64,000 nt of DNA from an uncultured Candidatus Rokubacteria bacterium (GCA_963771355.1 CAVYTA010000005.1:416001-480000), one strand, 5' to 3'. Shown: positions 5,544-15,770, counted from the first letter of the stretch. Numbers and translations are program-made. Notes: generated from the sequence alone by a model not told the origin.

Positions 5544-5891
5544 ATGGCCCGGGTGGACTGGAGCTATCATCGGAAGGGCTGAATGACCTGCGGTAAGACG
5601 CAGGGGTTCCTTGCGAAAGCGAAGATCGACACGGCCGAGCAGGTCGACGCCAAGAAGGTGCGGATGGGTCCGGAGCAGGCGCTCGGCCTGCTCAAGGAAG
5701 TCGACGAGCTTTACGTGGCCAAGGGCGCCAAGGTGGTCCACCTCGACCTGAAGAGGGACCGGCCGGAGCGGGCCACGCTGCTGGGTCTCCTCCTCGGCCC
5801 CTCGGGTAATCTCCGCGCCCCCACCCTGCGCAAGGGCCGCACCCTCCTCGTCGGCTTCAACGAGCCGACCTACAAGGCAGTGCTGAGATAG
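5544..5891 (+). CDS. ArsC/Spx-like thioredoxin-fold selenoprotein (UxxC)
   Basis: ATG 5544 reads MARVDWSYHRKG-TGA(5580)-MTCGKT in frame with ORF 5583..5891; ArsC-like GNLRAPTL..LLVGFN; SECIS-like hairpin downstream. Confidence 0.8.
5599..5615 (+). promoter_or_regulatory. Candidate bacterial SECIS element
   Basis: CGCAGG-GGTTC-CTTGCG hairpin with a G-initial loop 22 nt after the TGA; alternative hairpin CCTGCG-GTAAGA-CGCAGG at 5587-5604. Confidence 0.55.
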
Positions 5892-6700
5892 TGGCGGACC
5901 CCGCTGCCGCGGCGCCCGCGGCCCCCAGCCCCGGCGAGGTCTACGAGCGCGAGATGGTCCCCGGCCTGTTCGGGCCCTGGGCGGCGGATCTCGTCGAGCG
6001 CGCGGCCCCCGCGACGGGGACACGCGTCCTCGACGTGGCGTGCGGCACGGGCGTGGTCACGCGCCTCCTGCCGCCGCGGGTGGGAGCCACGGGGCGGGTA
6101 GTCGGTCTCGACCTCAATCCCGGCATGCTCGCGGCGGCGCGCACGGCGACGGCGGGCGCGCCCGTCGAATGGCTCGAGGGCAGCGCCCAGGCGGTGCCGC
6201 TCCCCGACGGCGCCTTCGATCTCGTGCTCTGCCAGCAGGGGCTGCAGTTCTTCCCGGACAAGGCCGCCGCGCTCCGCGAGATGCACCGCGTGCTCACGCC
6301 CGGCGGCCGGCTTTTCATCGCGGTGTGGAAGTCGAGCGCGCACTGCCCGGGCTTCGCCGCCCTCGAGCGGGCCCTGGCGAAATACGTGGGCGCGGACGCG
6401 GCCAAGTTGCCGCCCTTCTCGTTCGGCGACCGCGCGGCCCTCCGTGGCGTCATCGCGGGCGCCGGCTTTCGCGACCTGGTCATCCGGGCGGAGGTGAAGA
6501 TGACGCGCTTTCCCTCGCCCGAGGCCTTTTTCAGGGCCATCACCGCGGGCGCCCCCGCCATGCTGGGGCTGCTCGGGCAGCTGACAGAGCCGCAGCGGCG
6601 CGAGCTGATCTCCGAGATCAACGAGACCTTGGCGCCGCACCTCGACGACACCGGGCTGGCATTTCCCCAGCCTGCTCACCTGGCTACCGCCCGCAAGTGA
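5891..6700 (+). CDS. Class I SAM-dependent methyltransferase (UbiE-like)
   Basis: VLDVACGTG motif I, FDLVLCQQGLQFF, HRVLTPGG; start overlaps the upstream stop. Confidence 0.9.
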   Translation: MADPAAAAPAAPSPGEVYEREMVPGLFGPWAADLVERAAPATGTRVLDVACGTGVVTRLLPPRVGATGRVVGLDLNPGMLAAARTATAGAPVEWLEGSAQAVPLPDGAFDLVLCQQGLQFFPDKAAALREMHRVLTPGGRLFIAVWKSSAHCPGFAALERALAKYVGADAAKLPPFSFGDRAALRGVIAGAGFRDLVIRAEVKMTRFPSPEAFFRAITAGAPAMLGLLGQLTEPQRRELISEINETLAPHLDDTGLAFPQPAHLATARK

Positions 6701-6706
6701 CCATCG

Positions 6707-6715
6707 TGCTAGAGT
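6707..6715 (+). promoter_or_regulatory. Extended -10 promoter for the glmS leader
   Basis: TGcTAGAGT (TGn + TAnnnT); predicted TSS near 6722. Confidence 0.5.
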
Positions 6716-6780
6716 CGAAGCACGGAAAGGAGGGCGTCGAGGAGCGGATCCGAACGGGATAGAGGGGTCGTGAAGCACAC

Positions 6781-6926
6781 AGCGCCTGATCCGATCCGCG
6801 CGAGGTTCGCGCGGGCGGATGACGAGGAAGGGACCGATCGAGTCATTCGGCGGATGGTCCCTCGGCCGGCACGGTCGTGATGGGTGGAGCAAACCAGCGC
6901 GGTGACGCGCTGACAAACGCCACCCA
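6781..6926 (+). ncRNA. glmS ribozyme (GlcN6P-activated self-cleaving riboswitch)
   Basis: Conserved blocks in order: A^GCGCC (cleavage 6781/6782), P1 hairpin, GACGAGG, ATCGAG, TTCGGCGGATG, P3, AAACC-AGCGC-GGTGAC-GCGCTG-ACAAA P4 domain; upstream of glmS. Confidence 0.93.
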
Positions 6927-7097
6927 GCGTGTACGCGAGTCGCTCCGACCCGCGTGACTGACGTCACCCCTCCTCTCTCTGCGTCAGCGAGGTCACGGTT
7001 CTCGCCAACGGGCGATCTTCGCGCGCTCAGGCGGGCACCGACATGCCGCGCCGGCACGCGCTCGGGAGCCGTGGGCAGGGTGCTCGCGGTGGCGCCG

Positions 7098-7136
7098 GAT
7101 CGCCTCGCGCCGCCTCCTCCGGGAGGGATGGCGATC
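7098..7136 (+). promoter_or_regulatory. RBS-sequestering hairpin of glmS
   Basis: GATCGCC(7098-7104)/GGCGATC(7130-7136) and CCTCC(7113-7117)/GGAGG(7122-7126), immediately before ATG 7137. Confidence 0.65.
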
Positions 7137-8915
7137 ATGTGCGGGATCTTCGGTTACGTGGGCAGCGACGGAGAGGCCGCCGGCATCGTGCTGCGAGGCC
7201 TGCGACGGCTCGAGTATCGGGGCTATGACTCGTGGGGCATCGCGGTCGCCACCGGCCGGACCGTGGTGGTCGACAAGCGCGTCGGCAAGATCGGCGAGGC
7301 GGTGGCCAGCCTGCCGAGCAGCCGCTTCGGCATCGGGCACACGCGCTGGGCGACTCACGGGGGGGTCACGGTGCCCAATTCGCACCCGCACCTCGACTGC
7401 AGCGGACGCCTCGCGCTCGTCCACAACGGCATTGTCTCGAACTACGGGGAGCTCCGGCAGCGGCTGGGGCGGGCCGGTCACCGCTTCCGGTCGGAGACCG
7501 ATACCGAGGTCGTGGCGCACCTCATCGAGGAACATCTGGCCGACACGCCGGCGGGGCCCGAGCAGCTCGCCCGCGCCACCATGGCCGCGTTCCGCCACCT
7601 GCACGGGCTGAACGCGATCGCGGTGCTCGATGGGGAGAAGGGCCAGCTCGCCGCCGCGAAGAGCGGCTCGCCGCTGGTGCTGGGCTGGAGCGACGGAGGG
7701 CATCTGCTGGCCTCCGACCAGGGCGCGATCCTCGAGCGCACCCGCCGGGTGACGTTCGTCGAGGACGGTCAAGCCGCGCTGGTGACGGCGGAGGGGCACC
7801 GCCTCTTCGACGTGGTCACCGGGCGCGAGCTCCAGCCCAAGGTCATGGAGCTCGACGGCGAGGCCAGCGCCAGCGACCGCGCGGGCCATCCGGATTTCAT
7901 GACCAAGGAAACGTACGAGCAGCCGGCGGTGCTGCGTCGGCTCGCGGGTCCCGGCGCCGATCACGCGCGTCGTCTCGCCGGTCATCTGGCCGGCGCGCGC
8001 GACGTGGTCGCGGTCGGTTGCGGCACCGCCGGCTATGCGGCGCTGGCCGCCCAGTACCTGCTCGGGTCCATCGCCGGCCGGCGCGTCTCGGCGGTGGCCG
8101 GATCGGAGTTCAGCCATCTCGCCCCGTTCCTGGGGGCCGGCTCGCTCGTGCTGGCGTTCTCCCAGAGCGGGGAGACGATCGACGTGATCGAGGCCGCCCA
8201 GGCGGCGAAGGCGCGGGGAGCCCGGGTGGTGGCCATCGTCAACGTGGAGGGCTCGTCGCTCTGGCGCCTGGCCGACGACGCGATCCCGCTCGGGGCCGGG
8301 CCCGAGCAATGCGTGCTGTCCACCAAGAGCTTCACCGCCAAGCTCGCCCTCCTCGTGCTGACCGGCTACGCCGTGGCCGGACGGCCCGAGGAGGGGCAGG
8401 CGCTGGTGGCGGCCGCCGCCGACGAGGTGGAGCGGTTTCTCGGCGACGATCGGCGGGCGCTCATCGGTCAGATCGCCGAGGCCATCCAGGATCGCGCGCA
8501 CCTCTTCGCCATCGGGCGGGGATCGAGCTATCCGCTCGCGCTGGAGACGGCCCTGAAGGTGAAGGAGGTGAGCTACATGCACGCAGAGGGCTTCGCCGGC
8601 GGCGAGCTGAAGCACGGGGTCATCGCCCTCATCGAGCCGGGCACGCCCTGCATCGCCCTGGCGCCGTGCGACACCACCCGCGACGATGTGCTCGGCGGCG
8701 CGATGCAGGTAAAGGCGCGCGGGGCCCGCGTCATCGGCGTTTCCCCGGCGCCGCACGAGGCCTTCGACCACCATGTTCGCGTGGCCGACCTGGGGCCGGC
8801 GACCGCCATCGTCAACGCGATCCCGGCCCAGCTCCTGGGCTACGACCTCGCGCGCCTCCGCGGCCACGATCCCGACAAGCCACGGAATCTGGCCAAGAGC
8901 GTCACCGTGAAGTAG
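7137..8915 (+). CDS. glmS: Glutamine--fructose-6-phosphate aminotransferase (isomerizing)
   Basis: MCGIFG N-terminal nucleophile, LEYRGYDS, GHTRWATHG, SQSGET, C-terminal PRNLAKSVT. Confidence 0.97.
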   Translation: MCGIFGYVGSDGEAAGIVLRGLRRLEYRGYDSWGIAVATGRTVVVDKRVGKIGEAVASLPSSRFGIGHTRWATHGGVTVPNSHPHLDCSGRLALVHNGIVSNYGELRQRLGRAGHRFRSETDTEVVAHLIEEHLADTPAGPEQLARATMAAFRHLHGLNAIAVLDGEKGQLAAAKSGSPLVLGWSDGGHLLASDQGAILERTRRVTFVEDGQAALVTAEGHRLFDVVTGRELQPKVMELDGEASASDRAGHPDFMTKETYEQPAVLRRLAGPGADHARRLAGHLAGARDVVAVGCGTAGYAALAAQYLLGSIAGRRVSAVAGSEFSHLAPFLGAGSLVLAFSQSGETIDVIEAAQAAKARGARVVAIVNVEGSSLWRLADDAIPLGAGPEQCVLSTKSFTAKLALLVLTGYAVAGRPEEGQALVAAAADEVERFLGDDRRALIGQIAEAIQDRAHLFAIGRGSSYPLALETALKVKEVSYMHAEGFAGGELKHGVIALIEPGTPCIALAPCDTTRDDVLGGAMQVKARGARVIGVSPAPHEAFDHHVRVADLGPATAIVNAIPAQLLGYDLARLRGHDPDKPRNLAKSVTVK

Positions 8916-8931: not shown

Positions 8932-11900
8932 TCACGGCGAGCCACGACCTTTTCCGCGGGCGCGCTCCACGCGGGCAAGCTGGTCGAGATCGCCCAGCGC
9001 CTCCAGGACGTGCATGCCGGCCTCGAGCTCGCTCTGATCGCCGGTGAGGAGCGCCCGCTCGCAGCGAACCCGCGCGGCGTAAGGCACCGCACCGGTCTCT
9101 TCGAAGATCCCGAGGGCGCGCGTCAGCTCGGCGGTGTCTCGCATCGAGATGCCGAGCGCCCGTCGGGCCTGCGCCTCGAGCAGCTTCAGGCTGTCGGCGG
9201 CGGCACTGGTCACGATCCGCTGGATCGCCTCGGGGGCGAGCGATCGGTCGAGGTCGGAATACAGCGAGAGCGTGCGCTCGACGAGCTGCTGCCGCGCGCG
9301 CGGGATCGTGCCGAACCCTCCGATGACTTCTGCCTCCAGCGCTTCGATGTCTCCGCGGCCATACGGGCGCAGGCGCCCAAATAGGGAGTCGGCGGCAAAG
9401 TGTTTCAGGATCTCATCGAGCACCGCCCGATACCGGTCAACGAGCTGGGTGTCGTGACGGGCCCGCCCGACATCCAGGGCGGCGATGAAGCCATGGACGC
9501 AGTAGGCCGCCGGGATGAGTCCGCCTTCGGCCCAGATCTTCCGGGCGTGCTCGGCGACGGCGAGCGCCTCGTCCCACCGCCCGAGGAGCGTCAGGGCGTA
9601 CGCCCGCCAGGCCGCGGAGTGGAGCCCCCACCAGTGCACCTGGCCGGATTGAAAGAGACCCAGCGCGGAGGCGGTCGAGCGATCCGCCTGGGCGAGATCG
9701 CCCAGGAGGGCCGACGCCCACGCCACCATGGTATGGGCGTCGAGGCGTTCATGGAGATCCAGGCGATCCTCGAAGGCGAGGCGCTGCTGGGCAAACTGTC
9801 GGGACTGCGCGAACGCCCCGCGCGCTTTCGCGCAACTGGTGAGCGCGTCGAGCGCGGCGCTGCGGAGCCGGGGATCGTCGAGGCGCTCGGCAATCGCCAG
9901 GCCGCGTCCCGTACTCGCCTCGGCTTCGGCGATGTCCGCCGCCGTGGCCTGCGCCCCTCGCCAGAACGGATAGAACCCGTCCGCGATCAGGAAGCTCGCA
10001 ATGGCCTGCTCATCACGGGCCCGGGAGACGAGCGTCCGGCCATCCGTGCGGAGTCGCTGGATCTCCTCCTCGGACGGGCGGTTCCCCACCGTCCCCTGAA
10101 ACCGTGTGTACCGGGTGAGGAGGCTGCCCAGGACGCGCAGCTCCTGGTCGATCGGCCGGCCTAGCTCCCGGCAGAGGCGAAGCGCAACCCGGGAGGCCTC
10201 CGCCCCTTCGTCTCCCCCCGACACGTCACCGAGGCGCTCTTGCAGCTCCGGGAGATCGTCGGAGGCCGCCAGCTCGATGGCCGCGCGCAGGTGGCGGGCC
10301 GCTTCGGCGGTGGCGGCGCCGGCCGCGGCGACGTCGGCCGCGCGCTTGAGCCAGCTCACTGCCCTTCGCCGGATCTCGACCACGTCGAGCTGCGCGATCT
10401 TGGTCACGCTGGTGAGCGTGGCGGCTTCACGAAAGTGATAGGCGATCAGCTCGGCGAGCGCGTCCTCTTGCCCGCCGGCGCGGGCTTCGAGCCGGCGCGC
10501 GGCGGCGGCGTGCAAGTTCGCTCGTTCTGCGCGAAGCAGCGTCTGATAGGCCACCTCTCGGATCAGAATGTGGCGGAAGGCGAAGCTGTCTCCGGCCGAT
10601 GGCCGGATGAGATCCTTCTGGATAAGACGATCCAGCAGCGAGTCGGTATGGGATGCCAGATCCGGTCCGAGGGCGGCGATTCCGTCCGCGCGGAACGCCC
10701 GCCCGAATACCGCGCCGAGCTGCAAGACTCGCCTCTCCTCGGGCTCCAGGAGGTCGAGTCGGGCCAGGATGGTCGCCTGAATCGTGTCGGGGAGGGTCGC
10801 GAGCGTCTGCTCGAGGGCCGCGTCGTCGTTCAGCGAGAGGACGCGTTCCGTGATCGACTGGACAATCTCCGCCGCGAAGAAGGGGTTGCCTTCGGCGCGG
10901 ACCACGACACGCTCGACGATCTGCGGGGCACTCGAGCCGATCCGGTCGCGAACCAGTTGCGCGACCGAGTCGTCGCTGAGCGGCTCCAGGGACATGGAGA
11001 CGTAGTTCCGCCGGCCTCCTCCCCATCCCGGGCGCCGATCGAGCAGCTCCGGACGGGTCAGGGCGACCATCAGCACTGCCGCATCGCCTCGGGGCTGCAC
11101 GATGACCTCCACGAGATCGAGGAGGCTGTCACTCGACCAGTGCAGATCTTCGAATACCAGGACGAGCGGCGACCGTCGCGCCGCCACCTCGACGGCCGTG
11201 CGCCACGCGGCAAAAAGCGCGGTCCGGTCGATCACCTCCGGTTCACCGGCGCCGATGGTCGCGGCGAGGAGGTCGGCCACCCGCTCGGGCGATTCGACGC
11301 CGCGGTCGTGAAGCCAGACCCGGATCTCCTCGCGCACGGTTTCCGGCGCCGCCTCGTCCTTCAAGCCGACCAGGCGGATCAGGAGGGCGCGAAGCGGCCA
11401 GTAGGTGACCCGCTGGCCGTAGGGAAGGCACTGGGCGATTGCCACCGTCGCGTCGGACGAGAGGGCGGGCAGCCGAAGCAGAAACTCTTCGACGAGGCGC
11501 GTCTTCCCGGCCCCCGCGGGGGCGACGAGGCTCACGAGAAATGGCCGGCGGTCGGTGAAGGCCCGCCGGGCGACGAGCTCGAGCTGCGCCAGGTCGTCAT
11601 CCCGGCCGATGAGCGGAAAGCGGGACCGCGTGACCTCGGCCGCCCGCCCGAGGAGGGGCAGCGCCTGGATCGGCAGCCGCTTTCCCTTGACGTCGATCTC
11701 GGTCGGCTTCCCCAGGTTGAACCGGTCTCGAGCAGCCCGGGCGGTCCGCTCGCCGCACAGGATGGACCACGGCTCGGCCGCCTGCTGCAGGCGCGCTGCA
11801 ATGTTCACCGCGTCGCCGGTGATCAGGAAGTCGCTTGACGCGTTGTCACGCGTGGCGACCACTTCGCCCGTGTTCACCCCGATTCGTACCGTGTGCTGGG

Positions 11901-12186
11901 GAGCGAGCTTCGGGTCCACCCGGACGCGGTCGCGGATCTCGAGCGCCGCCGACATCGCGCGCTGCGCATCGTCGCCGTGGGCGTGGGGCAGCCCGAAGAC
12001 GGCCATGACCGCGTCGCCGATGGACTTCTCGACGGTGCCGCCGTGCGTGCCGACCACCTCTCTCGCAATGTTGTAATAGCGCGTCTGGAGGGCTTGAACA
12101 TCCTCGGGATCACGCGCCTCGCCGAGCATGGTCGTGCCCGCGATGTCGGCGAACAGCACGGTGACGATGCGGCGCTCTTCGGCCAT
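8932..12186 (-). CDS. Class III adenylate/guanylate cyclase + STAND AAA ATPase + helical repeats
   Basis: VLFADIAG, VEKSIGDAVM, GDAVNIAARL; Walker A APAGAGKT, Walker B VFEDLHW; start MAEERR at 12186. Confidence 0.9.
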   Translation of the reverse strand: MAEERRIVTVLFADIAGTTMLGEARDPEDVQALQTRYYNIAREVVGTHGGTVEKSIGDAVMAVFGLPHAHGDDAQRAMSAALEIRDRVRVDPKLAPQHTVRIGVNTGEVVATRDNASSDFLITGDAVNIAARLQQAAEPWSILCGERTARAARDRFNLGKPTEIDVKGKRLPIQALPLLGRAAEVTRSRFPLIGRDDDLAQLELVARRAFTDRRPFLVSLVAPAGAGKTRLVEEFLLRLPALSSDATVAIAQCLPYGQRVTYWPLRALLIRLVGLKDEAAPETVREEIRVWLHDRGVESPERVADLLAATIGAGEPEVIDRTALFAAWRTAVEVAARRSPLVLVFEDLHWSSDSLLDLVEVIVQPRGDAAVLMVALTRPELLDRRPGWGGGRRNYVSMSLEPLSDDSVAQLVRDRIGSSAPQIVERVVVRAEGNPFFAAEIVQSITERVLSLNDDAALEQTLATLPDTIQATILARLDLLEPEERRVLQLGAVFGRAFRADGIAALGPDLASHTDSLLDRLIQKDLIRPSAGDSFAFRHILIREVAYQTLLRAERANLHAAAARRLEARAGGQEDALAELIAYHFREAATLTSVTKIAQLDVVEIRRRAVSWLKRAADVAAAGAATAEAARHLRAAIELAASDDLPELQERLGDVSGGDEGAEASRVALRLCRELGRPIDQELRVLGSLLTRYTRFQGTVGNRPSEEEIQRLRTDGRTLVSRARDEQAIASFLIADGFYPFWRGAQATAADIAEAEASTGRGLAIAERLDDPRLRSAALDALTSCAKARGAFAQSRQFAQQRLAFEDRLDLHERLDAHTMVAWASALLGDLAQADRSTASALGLFQSGQVHWWGLHSAAWRAYALTLLGRWDEALAVAEHARKIWAEGGLIPAAYCVHGFIAALDVGRARHDTQLVDRYRAVLDEILKHFAADSLFGRLRPYGRGDIEALEAEVIGGFGTIPRARQQLVERTLSLYSDLDRSLAPEAIQRIVTSAAADSLKLLEAQARRALGISMRDTAELTRALGIFEETGAVPYAARVRCERALLTGDQSELEAGMHVLEALGDLDQLARVERARGKGRGSP

Positions 12187-12193
12187 TCTGCGC

Positions 12194-15100
12194 TCAGAAG
12201 GCCGTGCGCTTGGCTTGCGCCAGGACCCGGTCGGTGTCGGCAACCAGAGGCCCGGCGCGGAGCGCGTCGAATGCTCTCCGAGCCTCGCCCAGGTGGGCGA
12301 CCGCCTCGTGAGGCCGACCCACCGCCACCAGGCAGCGGCCCGCCCCCAATGCCGCCTGCCCGTGCTCCAGGGCGAACCCGTAGCTCGCCCAGTGCGCCGC
12401 CACCTCGGCGTAGAGTGCGCTTGCCGCATCCGGGCGGCCTTGAGCTTCGGTGAGCACGGCACGGCCCGCGAGCACGGAGTATTGGTGGCGGGGCGCGCGG
12501 TGAGCGCTGCTGTCCAGCAGGCGTTCGGCGAGACGGATCGCGCCCGCCGCCACACTCACTCGGAGCGCCTCGGGCAGGTGACGGGCCCGAAAGACCGGGC
12601 GATCCCGAGTGATCTCCTCGATCTCCTCGATCAGCCGCACGGTCGTCACGTGGTTGCCGCGTGTGTGCTCGATGAGCGAGACGACGGCCACGGCGGGGAC
12701 GAGCACCTGGGGGTCCCGGATTTCCCGGGCGCGCGGCAGGAACTCCTCCGCGAGGACATGCGCCTGGCTCAGCTCCCCGCGGCACACCAAGACGTACGCC
12801 ATGTACGTCAGCGCGACGACGGTGACCTGACCCCCGCCCTGCCGCCGGTCCCTCTCGATCAAGTCGCCGGCGATGCGAAGCAGCTCGTCCCATCGCCCGA
12901 GATCGAACAGGGGCCAGAGCGTCTCCGCTTCGGCCCACATGACCGGAAGGGTGAGCCCCCGCCGCTCTCCAAACTCGATTCCCGCTCGCTTCACGTCGAG
13001 AGCCTGGGCGGGGCCCTCGACGACCCACACCCAGTCGCCGAGGTTTCCGTAGGACCGGATGGTTTCGTTCCCCAGGCCGAGATCCAGGCTGAGGCGAAGC
13101 GCTTCCCGGAGGTCGGCGAGGCCTCCGACCAGGTCGTCGAGCTGGCACCGCGCAAGGCCCCGGAGCTGACGCGCTCGGATGGCCTCGGCATCGAGCCCGA
13201 GGTCCTCGGCGAGGGCAAGGGCTTTCTCCGACCACACCGCGCAATCAGGAGAACGGTTGGCGACCATGTGGTCGGCCGCGCTATGCGTGTAGGCCAAGGC
13301 CAGCTCGCGTCCGGGCGGCTCGCGCTCGAGCAGCTCGATTGCCTGCGCGAGAAGCGCCCGCTTTCGGTCGGTCTCCCCCCGGAACCAGTACGTTCTGGCC
13401 AGTCGCACCATCGACTCGCCCGCGCCGAGGATCGCCCCCTGCGCGTGGAACTCGACGATCGCCTCCTCGAAGTCACGCTGGGCCTCGGACAGCCGGCCCC
13501 CGACGAGGGCGGCCTCGGCGGTCTTCCCGAGTAGCCTGGCCCGCTCGGGATGAAGCGGGGGAGAGAGCTTGAGCGCCTGCCGGTAGAAGGCCTCTGCCTT
13601 CCGGGCATCGAACTCGAGCGCTCGGTCGCCGGCCATGATCAGGTAGCGCCGGACCTGCGCCTCCAGCTCGTGCGTGTCATCATCCAGGCCGGCCGCCTTC
13701 GCAAGCTGAAGAGCCTGTCCGTAGTGGTGCGCGAGGATGTCGGCGTGGTCGGTCACGCGTTCGCCGGCCAGGCGCTCGATCCAGGCGGCCGCCGTCCGGT
13801 GCTTGCGCACCCGCGCCGCTCGGGGGATCTGCTGGTAGGCGACGTCGCGGATGAGCAGGTGCCGAAACGAATACTCCGCCTCACCCTTGACCGACGAGGT
13901 CCGAACGGGACGCAGGAGCTCCTTTCGGGCGACCATCTGCAACCCTTCTTCCACCACTCGCTCGTCGAGCCCGCTCATGAAGGCGAGCGCGCCCACCCAG
14001 AAGACGGTGCCCACGACGGCGGCGTCGTGGAGCAGCGCCTTCCGCTCAGCCGGGAGCGTGTCGAGACGGGCGGCGATCACGGCCTGGATGGTCTCGGGGA
14101 TCGGGATGGCGGCGCCGGCCGCAACCTGCATGGTCTGTCCCCGATGTTCGACGATCCCGCGGTCAGCGAGCATGCGAGCGAATTCCCCCGCGTAGAGCGG
14201 GTTTCCGCCGGCTCGCTCGAGCAGCGCGGTCTGCGTGTCATCCGGGAGCTCCACGCCGGGGAGGTGTGCGGCGATCAGCCGGCTCGTCTCTTCACGAGAG
14301 AGGGGGGCAAGCGAGATGGTGGTGGAGTCCCGCTTGCCGCCACCCCATCCGGGATGGCGCTCGAAGAGCTCAGGCCTGGTGGTGCAGACCACCAGGAACG
14401 GCAGACCCGCCGCCCAGTCCACGAGATACTCCACGAACTCGAGCAATGGCGCGCCGGCCCAGTGCACGTCCTCGAAGACCAGGACCAGCGGTTGGTCGTC
14501 CGCGACGGCCTCGAGGAAACGCCGCCAAGCGGCAAAGGATTCGGATCGCTCGGCCAGGCCCCCGGCGCCGGGGGTGCTCGCGCCGACCAGGAGGGCGAGG
14601 CGGGTCTTGAGCCAGTCTCGCTCGGTGGGATCTTCAATGATGGCCCCGATGGCCGCCGCGAGCTTGTCGGAGGCCTCGTGTGGACTGTCGGATTCCAGGA
14701 TTCCCGCCTGACTCTTGACGATCTCCCCCAGCGCCCAGAAGGTGATGCCCTCCCCATAGGGAAGGCATCGGCCTTGTCGCCAGCGCGCCCCCTGCGGCTG
14801 CCAGTCGACGAAGGCGCGGAACTCGCGGACCAGGCGACTTTTCCCGAGCCCCGGCTCGCCGGCCACCGTGATGAGCTGGGCCGAACCCTCTCGCGCGGCA
14901 CGAGCATAGAGGGCCTTCAGGAGGGCCAGCTCGTGGGTGCGGCCGATGAAGGGGGAGAGCGTCGCCTCGGCGGGATCGGCGCCGTATCGCCCGCGGGAGG
15001 CTTTGGCTCGCCACACCCGCATTGGCTCGACCTGCTCTTTGACCGAGACGGGATCGAGCGCCTCATAGTCCACCAGATGCCGGGTCGTCCGATAGGTGGC

Positions 15101-15547
15101 CTCGTCGACGACTACCGCTCCGACCGGGGCGATCGCCTGGAGGCGGGCCGCCGTGTTCACGACGTCGCCGGTCGCAACGCCCTCGCCTTCCACTCTCCTG
15201 GCCCCGCGCCCCACCACCGCTTCCCCGGTGGTGACGGCGGCCCGCAGGGCCAGCTCGAGCCCTGGCTCGGCTGCGTTCAGCTCCTGGACCGCCTCGACGA
15301 TGCGAAGGGCCGCCCGCACCGCTCGCTCGGCGTCGTCCTCATGGCCGACGGGCGCGCCGAAGGCGGCCATGACGGCGTCGCCGATGAACTTCTCCACGGT
15401 GCCGCCCCACCGCACGAGCTCTTGTCTCACGCAGGCGTAGTATGGCCGCAGCGTGCTTCGGATATCCTCGGGATCCGCTTGATCCGATCGCGCGACGAAC
15501 CCGACAAGGTCGACGCACAGGATGGACACGACTTTCCGCTCTTGCAT
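12194..15547 (-). CDS. Class III adenylate/guanylate cyclase + STAND AAA ATPase + TPR-like repeats
   Basis: LCVDLVGF, VEKFIGDAVM, GDVVNTAARL; GEPGLGKS, VFEDVHW; start uncertain (15547 or slightly upstream). Confidence 0.9.
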   Translation of the reverse strand: MQERKVVSILCVDLVGFVARSDQADPEDIRSTLRPYYACVRQELVRWGGTVEKFIGDAVMAAFGAPVGHEDDAERAVRAALRIVEAVQELNAAEPGLELALRAAVTTGEAVVGRGARRVEGEGVATGDVVNTAARLQAIAPVGAVVVDEATYRTTRHLVDYEALDPVSVKEQVEPMRVWRAKASRGRYGADPAEATLSPFIGRTHELALLKALYARAAREGSAQLITVAGEPGLGKSRLVREFRAFVDWQPQGARWRQGRCLPYGEGITFWALGEIVKSQAGILESDSPHEASDKLAAAIGAIIEDPTERDWLKTRLALLVGASTPGAGGLAERSESFAAWRRFLEAVADDQPLVLVFEDVHWAGAPLLEFVEYLVDWAAGLPFLVVCTTRPELFERHPGWGGGKRDSTTISLAPLSREETSRLIAAHLPGVELPDDTQTALLERAGGNPLYAGEFARMLADRGIVEHRGQTMQVAAGAAIPIPETIQAVIAARLDTLPAERKALLHDAAVVGTVFWVGALAFMSGLDERVVEEGLQMVARKELLRPVRTSSVKGEAEYSFRHLLIRDVAYQQIPRAARVRKHRTAAAWIERLAGERVTDHADILAHHYGQALQLAKAAGLDDDTHELEAQVRRYLIMAGDRALEFDARKAEAFYRQALKLSPPLHPERARLLGKTAEAALVGGRLSEAQRDFEEAIVEFHAQGAILGAGESMVRLARTYWFRGETDRKRALLAQAIELLEREPPGRELALAYTHSAADHMVANRSPDCAVWSEKALALAEDLGLDAEAIRARQLRGLARCQLDDLVGGLADLREALRLSLDLGLGNETIRSYGNLGDWVWVVEGPAQALDVKRAGIEFGERRGLTLPVMWAEAETLWPLFDLGRWDELLRIAGDLIERDRRQGGGQVTVVALTYMAYVLVCRGELSQAHVLAEEFLPRAREIRDPQVLVPAVAVVSLIEHTRGNHVTTVRLIEEIEEITRDRPVFRARHLPEALRVSVAAGAIRLAERLLDSSAHRAPRHQYSVLAGRAVLTEAQGRPDAASALYAEVAAHWASYGFALEHGQAALGAGRCLVAVGRPHEAVAHLGEARRAFDALRAGPLVADTDRVLAQAKRTAF

Positions 15548-15770
15548 CCGATCGGGAAGCGACGGCCCGGGCGCGACGTCACGGTGACGCTGAGGCTCGT
15601 TCAAGGCGCGCCCTCGCTCCCGACCGCCCGCACCTGCGCCTGCGCCCAGCCCTCCCGCGTCAACCGTTATCTCCTTGCCCCTGCTCGCGCGCCACGCTCG
15701 CACCCCGAGAAGGCGAAGTCAAGCGCCGGCAAGGGCGATGCCCCTTTGCCATCACCGGCGCCAGGCGCCA

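Follow-up and report, generated by a model that had tools for sequence, protein, structure and literature searches.

Control of glmS by its self-cleaving ribozyme is described as cleavage plus decay without an expression platform (PMC2258182, PMC5473149, PMC3997798). Does this description also hold for a leader whose cleaved-off 5' strand is complementary to the strand directly before the Shine-Dalgarno (SD) sequence? Such a leader is found in a 64,000-nucleotide (nt) stretch of DNA from an uncultured Candidatus Rokubacteria bacterium (GCA_963771355.1 CAVYTA010000005.1:416001-480000), referred to here as the window and numbered from its first letter. An earlier interpretation (the sequence-only reading) proposed that the intact RNA keeps the SD open by long-range pairing to an anti-SD strand, and that self-cleavage detaches the 5' strand and lets an SD hairpin close without a need for RNase J. 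Our analysis tips slightly in favor of a modified form of this proposal, in which the cleavable leader would be a built-in expression platform and cutting would act as a translational OFF switch beside decay by RNase J.

A glmS ribozyme with predicted long-range pairing directly upstream of the SD

The glmS ribozyme (RF00234) was the sole RNA family found by Rfam in the window. Its covariance model was matched at full length, above the gathering score (positions 6770-6936, model positions 1-167, 87.8 bits, gathering 37, E 7.1e-19). The ribozyme is located 5' of glmS (TIGR01135 570 bits; Pfam GATase and SIS), which starts with an ATG at 7137-7139 preceded by the SD GGAGG at 7122-7126, and a 16S rRNA 3' end bearing CCTCC was found in the host genome. 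From the sequence and the Rfam alignment, the cut was placed between A6781 and G6782 (A-1/G1), the exact position being taken by us to be that established for glmS ribozymes. All 58 relatives have the conserved cut-site and core sequences (A-1, G1, P2.1/P2.2), which is in part a consequence of how the selection pattern was constructed. Self-cleavage would be dependent on glucosamine-6-phosphate (GlcN6P). An in-frame GTG further upstream (6954) was ruled out as the glmS start because an MCG start is common to all relatives and GlmS requires an N-terminal cysteine.

Folding of the leader yielded two long-range helices that involve sequence 5' of the cut. Helix A joins 6723-6752 (block 1) to 7096-7121 with 23 pairs and -32.4 kcal/mol, in the blocks 6747-6752/7096-7101, 6738-6742/7103-7107, 6734-6736/7108-7110, 6729-6733/7113-7117 and 6723-6726/7118-7121; the blocks named in the sequence-only reading pair as claimed there, with about 24 base pairs expected. 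The local hairpin said to hold the SD was likewise predicted (7098-7136, -19.7 kcal/mol). Helix B, which had been overlooked, is nested within helix A and joins 6756-6768 to 6966-6977 with 11 pairs, so that the ribozyme forms a loop on a stalk built by its own cleavable leader. None of 60 upstream regions of ordinary genes paired as well as the window's 5' strand, and the 23 pairs compare with a maximum of 21 in 15 shuffles. Given that tests on the window alone were mixed (see below), we regard the pairing as above chance because it is conserved in 58 related leaders.

Conservation of the pairing in related leaders

The leader set was drawn from 186 loci: the ribozyme was present in 169 of them and the leader complete in 147, and the latter formed 65 clusters at 90% identity. 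Seven clusters were set aside as outgroups, which left 58 related leaders; 22 incomplete loci were left out, and L022 and L028 fell outside the set, being missed by the selection pattern. Metagenome loci were grouped by likeness and by tree, without taxonomy labels. The leaders are kin, and plain leader counts therefore overstate the evidence. Unconstrained whole-leader folding did not produce the long-range (ON) fold and misfolded the ribozyme core, which was therefore replaced by an 8-N linker in later folds.

When the transcript was ended before the SD, the 5' strand was predicted to form at least 15 pairs with the final 32 nt of that transcript in 53 of 58 leaders versus 50% of shuffles, so that the pairing proposed for the window is kept in its relatives right before the SD. 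Relatives differ in the length of the core-to-ATG spacer (52-226 nt), and with spacers of at least 120 nt the same number of pairs was reached in 19/22 leaders versus 29% of shuffles. Regardless of spacer length, the median partner offset shows a steady progression along block 1, from -17 to -41. Aligned independently, block 1 and the anti-SD block gave consensuses that are mutually reverse complementary. Cognate duplexes had a mean of -43.2 versus -39.7 for non-cognate ones (65 leaders; 0/20000 permutations), and the duplex was better than its own shuffle mean in 54 of the 58 leaders (mean z -2.13). When block 1 was compared with upstream regions of ordinary genes, a median of 2.5% of the latter were as good. 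Helix A was retained in full-length folds of 41/58 leaders.

Among the leaders outside the set, L022 also had the pairing (z -2.2; 6/200) and three others that were left out were weaker (z -0.3 to -1.3). Outside the lineage, z was below -1.64 in 2 of 13 leaders from Chloroflexota or others and in none of five viral-contig leaders. Values of -3.5 and -2.3 were obtained for a leader from a deltaproteobacterial record (L040) and one from a Chloroflexota-phylum genome (L203), respectively. Judged from the aligned sequences, the canonical description of glmS control as lacking an expression platform does not apply to these leaders, which have a conserved predicted pairing to the strand before the SD.

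Co-evolution of the two strands

The 5' strands were exchanged between 29 disjoint sister pairs of leaders, taken from a tree of core and coding sequence. Swapping weakened the predicted binding in 20 pairs and strengthened it in 8, with one tie (sign p 0.018, Wilcoxon 0.006), and control swaps of far-upstream and coding sequence were null. The result was obtained under two energy measures, which are not independent of each other. For the SD-like half of block 1 the balance was 21 versus 6 (p 0.003); this co-evolution with the partner goes beyond what a free ribosome-binding decoy would need.

Given a sequence-only alignment of 28 rows (A1), RNAalifold recovered a short SD hairpin and, unaided, the helix A core; from a second one of 17 rows (A2) it found helix B and not helix A. 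In A1, helix A was 86% paired, compared with 23-57% in slid controls, and had 5 two-sided cells (1/500 shuffles), which derive from only two or three events. A2 was 90% paired (0/500 shuffles) after a middle-block helix had been removed and helix B added. At the level of sequence, the co-evolution of helix A is modest, and the covariation support is real for whole helices and not shown for single pairs. Of the covariation expected between the 5' strand and the anti-SD strand, the swap result and the helix counts could thus be found; a significant pair of columns could not.

Predicted effect of cleavage on the ribosome binding site

The cost of opening positions -16 to +5 was computed with the core as linker. 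It averaged 10.5 kcal/mol for uncut leaders, 14.2 for cut leaders and 12.3 for leaders with shuffled 5' strands. The real 5' strand was better than the shuffle mean in 45/58 leaders and better than all 20 shuffles in 14. Relative to 250 ordinary genes of the host genome, the median costs lie at the 46th percentile for the uncut and at the 81st for the cut leaders. The expected difference between folds with and without the 5' strand is therefore present in the mean of the set; in the window the rise is small, and at equilibrium the SD is closed even in the uncut RNA.

In the window the ON minus OFF difference was predicted to be -1.0 to +0.9 kcal/mol. The anti-SD strand would thus have two mutually exclusive pairings of near-equal predicted energy, as in translational riboswitch platforms. 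Helix A was dominant at transcript lengths 7112-7132, and from 7134 the SD hairpin takes over at equilibrium. In the cut RNA of the window the CU tract is an alternative partner of the SD, so that closure does not have to depend on a single fixed hairpin.

Transcription of the leader

The extended -10 element reported in the sequence-only reading is present at 6707-6715, with a predicted transcription start near 6720-6723. Its motif, TGnTA, was found 55-125 nt 5' of the cut site in 44/57 leaders versus 1/56 in a control window further upstream, and it precedes the pairing block, as the switch model requires. A scan for two-hexamer sigma-70 promoters gave 0 sites. No terminator-like site was found at the end of the preceding methyltransferase gene, which stops 6 nt before the extended -10, so that read-through into the leader is possible. 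RNA data (8 runs, all contigs) gave no evidence on the start site or on cutting. Two contigs from these runs (6703-6885 and 6704-6840) span both promoter and cut site and may for this reason represent DNA or read-through.

A kinetic model and its alternatives

Several results weigh against a switch. Compared with shuffled 5' strands, the window duplex alone was not significant (z -0.56, 29/100 as good), nor was its ensemble binding (17/100 as good). Helix B had no support in the shuffle test and no signal in swaps (13 vs 14), the GC half of block 1, which is its non-SD part, gave 13 vs 11, and narrower swap windows gave p values of 0.12 and 0.17. When the 5' and 3' blocks were aligned independently and 6256 column pairs were examined by a tree-aware G-test, no significant pair was identified (best E 3.2). 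The A1 and A2 structures were picked after the alignments had been viewed, and a first register of the middle block in A2 was rejected as out of register (48.8% paired, 494/500 shuffles). About half of the mean gain in opening was also obtained with shuffled strands, and in the window the gain was small (12.4 uncut, 14.1 cut, 14.3 shuffled); the full-length equilibrium fold of the window has the SD hairpin closed even when uncut. The OFF hairpin showed no covariation (199/500 shuffles; swaps null) and its strength was little above that in ordinary genes (-6.8 vs -5.5, or -5.8 when GC-matched). The cut 5' piece was predicted to stay hybridized in trans, at -14.6 kcal/mol in the window and -14.8 on average, and more strongly than -10 in 46/58 leaders. 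Finally, RNase J is encoded intact in the host genome (570 bits against a cut-off of 400, frame and motifs whole) and 163/183 genomes of the order score above the same cut-off, so that no extra switch would be needed.

Two parts of the sequence-only reading are not upheld by these results: its independence from RNase J, and simple detachment of the 5' strand, which is unlikely once the clamp of long-range pairs has formed, the cut piece being predicted to stay bound. Cutting after this point would not on its own release the 5' piece, and the switch is therefore probably kinetic in the main, acting during transcription. The glmS ribozyme of B. subtilis has been shown to cut co-transcriptionally, even while still incomplete (PMC10810187). 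In the uncut RNA, folding predicts that the tethered 5' strand would capture the anti-SD strand before the SD is transcribed, which would leave the SD free for the ribosome. At high GlcN6P, the ribozyme would cut co-transcriptionally, before the anti-SD strand and perhaps before the CU tract exist; with the 5' piece lost, the SD would pair with either of them and translation would drop. The 5'-OH end left by cutting would also be exposed to RNase J, and the repression may be reinforced both by the resulting decay and by the action of Rho on RNA that is not translated. The firm parts of this model are the ribozyme, the conserved promoter motif and the conserved complementarity directly before the SD. 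Of the ribozyme-gated OFF switch as first proposed, the conserved, co-evolving pairing of leader and anti-SD strand has held up; detachment, freedom from RNase J and covariation of the OFF hairpin have not. A bolder version, to which we give a little less than an even chance, is that GlcN6P-induced cutting alone, free of nucleases, silences translation, that the SD-mimicking 5' product must stay tethered during transcription to capture the anti-SD strand, and that the switch is natural and lineage-wide, in a cassette that travels among Rokubacteriales, Chloroflexota and a deltaproteobacterium.

The main rival explanation, which we consider unlikely yet worth weighing, makes the leader a 5'-end stabilizer that shields the mRNA, as long as it is uncut, against RNase J or RNase E; cutting would bypass the shield and, as in Bacillus, repression would occur by decay alone. 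RNase J and RNase E/G are both encoded by the host, and the OFF hairpin is without covariation. As a 5'-terminal double-stranded clamp, the shield would agree with helix A beginning only a few bases from the predicted start, but protection by a stem does not require a partner at a distance of 300 nt whose end is always beside the SD. It could also be a STAB-SD binding the 30S subunit, for which there is a described precedent (PMC4113751). In 43/58 leaders the 16S tail is bound more strongly by the 5' block than by the true SD, and a start codon follows the block in only 10/58; a leader peptide behind the block (lengths 2-55) was rejected on the latter count. SD-like blocks also lie 5' of the cut in most Chloroflexota and viral-contig glmS leaders without a long-range pairing signal, and those in other phyla (L192-L207) may be a general, unnoticed stabilizer feature of glmS leaders. 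A STAB-SD must, however, be single-stranded, whereas block 1 is predicted to be mostly paired (0.5-0.8) except for two A residues and co-evolves with the anti-SD strand in the swaps described above.

That the long-range helices are a constitutive scaffold, which prevents misfolding onto the ribosome site or the core, persists after cutting and leaves regulation to decay, appears improbable to us. A scaffold accounts for the conserved placement beside the SD, for an OFF hairpin without visible co-evolution and for the binding of the cut piece in trans predicted at about -15 kcal/mol, but not for ON and OFF folds of nearly equal energy in the window or for a 3' piece that by itself is predicted to be more closed than ordinary genes, and co-transcriptional cutting would precede formation of the clamp. 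Least probable, and to be considered only as a faint possibility, is chance complementarity of a GC-rich, purine-skewed sequence that was inherited from a single ancestor and has no function. Pairing with an anti-SD is common to all SD-like blocks, the counts are inflated by kinship, no column pair was significant and the window alone was not significant in two of four tests; against this, the pairing outlasts a large turnover of sequence and spacer length, independent swaps favor the cognate partner while controls do not, and the pairing recurs in L040 and L203.

Comparison with known systems

With the Bacillus subtilis glmS ribozyme, the window element shares the family, the place in the glmS 5' leader, the cut-site sequence and a cell that has RNase J. 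It differs in the predicted pairing of the strand removed by cleavage with sequence directly upstream of the SD, in its Rokubacteriales host and in its association with an extra glmS copy. In engineered aptazymes, cutting releases an anti-ribosome-binding-site (anti-RBS) strand (PMC8496063, PMC5052635). As in these synthetic RBS switches (Ogawa and Maeda; Hartig group; twister-based), cleavage in the window would part a pairing strand from the mRNA and change access to the SD. In the basic aptazyme design the released strand is an anti-RBS and cutting means ON, while in the window the released strand is an anti-anti-SD and cutting would mean OFF; the window system is, moreover, natural and its duplex much longer (23 + 11 pairs) than those given there. 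The STAB-SD of Bacillus thuringiensis cry3A mRNA (PMC4113751) is likewise an SD-like leader block that is not followed by a start codon, and its cell also has RNase J, but it is described as binding 30S as a single strand, whereas the window block is predicted to be paired and co-evolves with its partner in the mRNA.

Mutually exclusive pairings that set SD access are also the principle of translational anti-SD/anti-anti-SD riboswitches, and a natural ribozyme coupled to a ligand is described for the c-di-GMP-II riboswitch with its group I intron (PMC5052635). Unlike in either, the window switch would be thrown by irreversible strand scission and not by ligand-induced refolding or splicing. 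The riboswitch/intron case reportedly has a translational side as well.

The literature searched contained no natural glmS leader with such a mechanism, as was also supposed in the sequence-only reading, and nothing on Rokubacteria; supplements and some key glmS papers were outside this search, so that a prior mention is possible. The glmS ribozyme serves as the textbook example of a riboswitch that lacks an expression platform. If the model is true, a conserved platform formed by the cleaved-off strand would show that natural self-cleavage can gate translation directly, as synthetic aptazymes do, and engineered aptazyme RBS switches would have a natural equivalent in which the logic is inverted. 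Such a platform suggests how the ribozyme could stay useful when moving between phyla, and would make an irreversible OFF switch that responds to GlcN6P readily available. For a direct test of kinetic control, the 58 natural variants and their range of spacers are suitable material.

Distribution of the ribozyme-glmS cassette

Three full-length glmS genes are present in the host genome (C6:751422-753254, C7:132228-134060 and window 7137-8915), and the ribozyme precedes only the most divergent of them (TIGR01135 570 bits vs 815.7 and 802). Three further genomes (G003, G069 and G045) also carry an ordinary full-length glmS copy beside the ribozyme-led one. A 26-row tree of GlmS proteins places the ribozyme-led copies with Chloroflexota GlmS, distant from the two ordinary copies; this was a quick tree with a midpoint root, which does not address the direction of transfer. 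Close relatives of the host carry the titles Rokubacteria or Methylomirabilota. The ribozyme is patchy, with matches in 24/183 genomes of the order, 21 of them strong, and a core-pattern search of 68 further genomes of the phylum found no ribozyme. The sequence comparison suggests that the ribozyme-glmS cassette moved horizontally. Rho is encoded by the host alongside the nucleases named above.

Some loci depart from the common arrangement. In one contig (L094, JACXTT010091776.1), the same ribozyme and leader (near 701-727, -) precede a gene for a LysE-type translocator (520-2, -; Pfam LysE E 2.1e-23) and not glmS; this is a single contig, and replacement or misassembly is possible. In L022 (G152:C12 near 239352), the long-range pairing is very clean and the glmS frame shifts within the first codons, which is either an assembly error or a broken gene. 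Behind an intact leader, a short non-GlmS frame follows after MC, or the ribozyme is interrupted inside P4 by unrelated sequence (L095, L099, L146 / L118, L151); these are apparent decayed or interrupted copies. In a ribozyme-bearing Chloroflexia genome of unstated completeness (G253, the genome of L045), no match to RNase J exceeded the cut-off, the best score being 20 bits.

Features of the locus

The features of the leader and its surroundings are collected in Table 1. The optional hairpin that adjoins the core might, speculatively, be a pause or timing element.

Table 1. Coordinates of the ribozyme-led glmS locus in the window and the basis of each assignment
Feature	Positions	Strand	Basis
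S-adenosylmethionine (SAM)-dependent methyltransferase gene	5891..6700	+	Open reading frame (ORF); Pfam Methyltransf_11 E 4e-27
Extended -10 element TGnTAnnnT, TGCTAGAGT	6707..6715	+	Sequence, conservation
5' block 1: SD-like purine block and GC block, putative anti-anti-SD strand (helix A)	6723..6752	+	Folding; RNAalifold A1 core
5' block 2, partner of CU tract (helix B, 11 pairs)	6756..6768	+	Folding; RNAalifold A2
glmS ribozyme (RF00234)	6770..6936	+	Rfam 87.8 bits
Self-cleavage site A-1/G1	6781..6782	+	Sequence and Rfam alignment
Optional hairpin adjoining core 3' side	6934..6956	+	Folding; absent in e.g. L015, L026, L155, L020
CU tract, 3' strand of helix B; alternative partners block 1 or SD	6966..6977	+	Folding
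Variable insertion domain, self-contained hairpins	6981..7095	+	Folding, comparison of relatives
Anti-SD strand: predicted partner 6723-6752 (ON) or 7122-7136 (OFF)	7096..7121	+	Folding
OFF hairpin, SD through base preceding ATG	7098..7136	+	-19.7 kcal/mol; without covariation
SD GGAGG	7122..7126	+	Sequence; 16S tail CCTCC in genome
glmS, 592 amino acids (aa), MCG start, divergent third copy	7137..8915	+	Pfam GATase and SIS; TIGR01135

Upstream of the methyltransferase gene, a small ORF listed at 5583-5891 (+) continues 5' past an in-frame TGA and probably begins near 5544. The extended ORF (about 5544-5891) would contain a U-x-x-C motif if the TGA encodes selenocysteine. Directly downstream of glmS, two long ORFs (1207 and 1169 aa) occupy 8932-15703 on the opposite strand (-) and, judged by eye, resemble adenylate/guanylate cyclase plus ATPase proteins.

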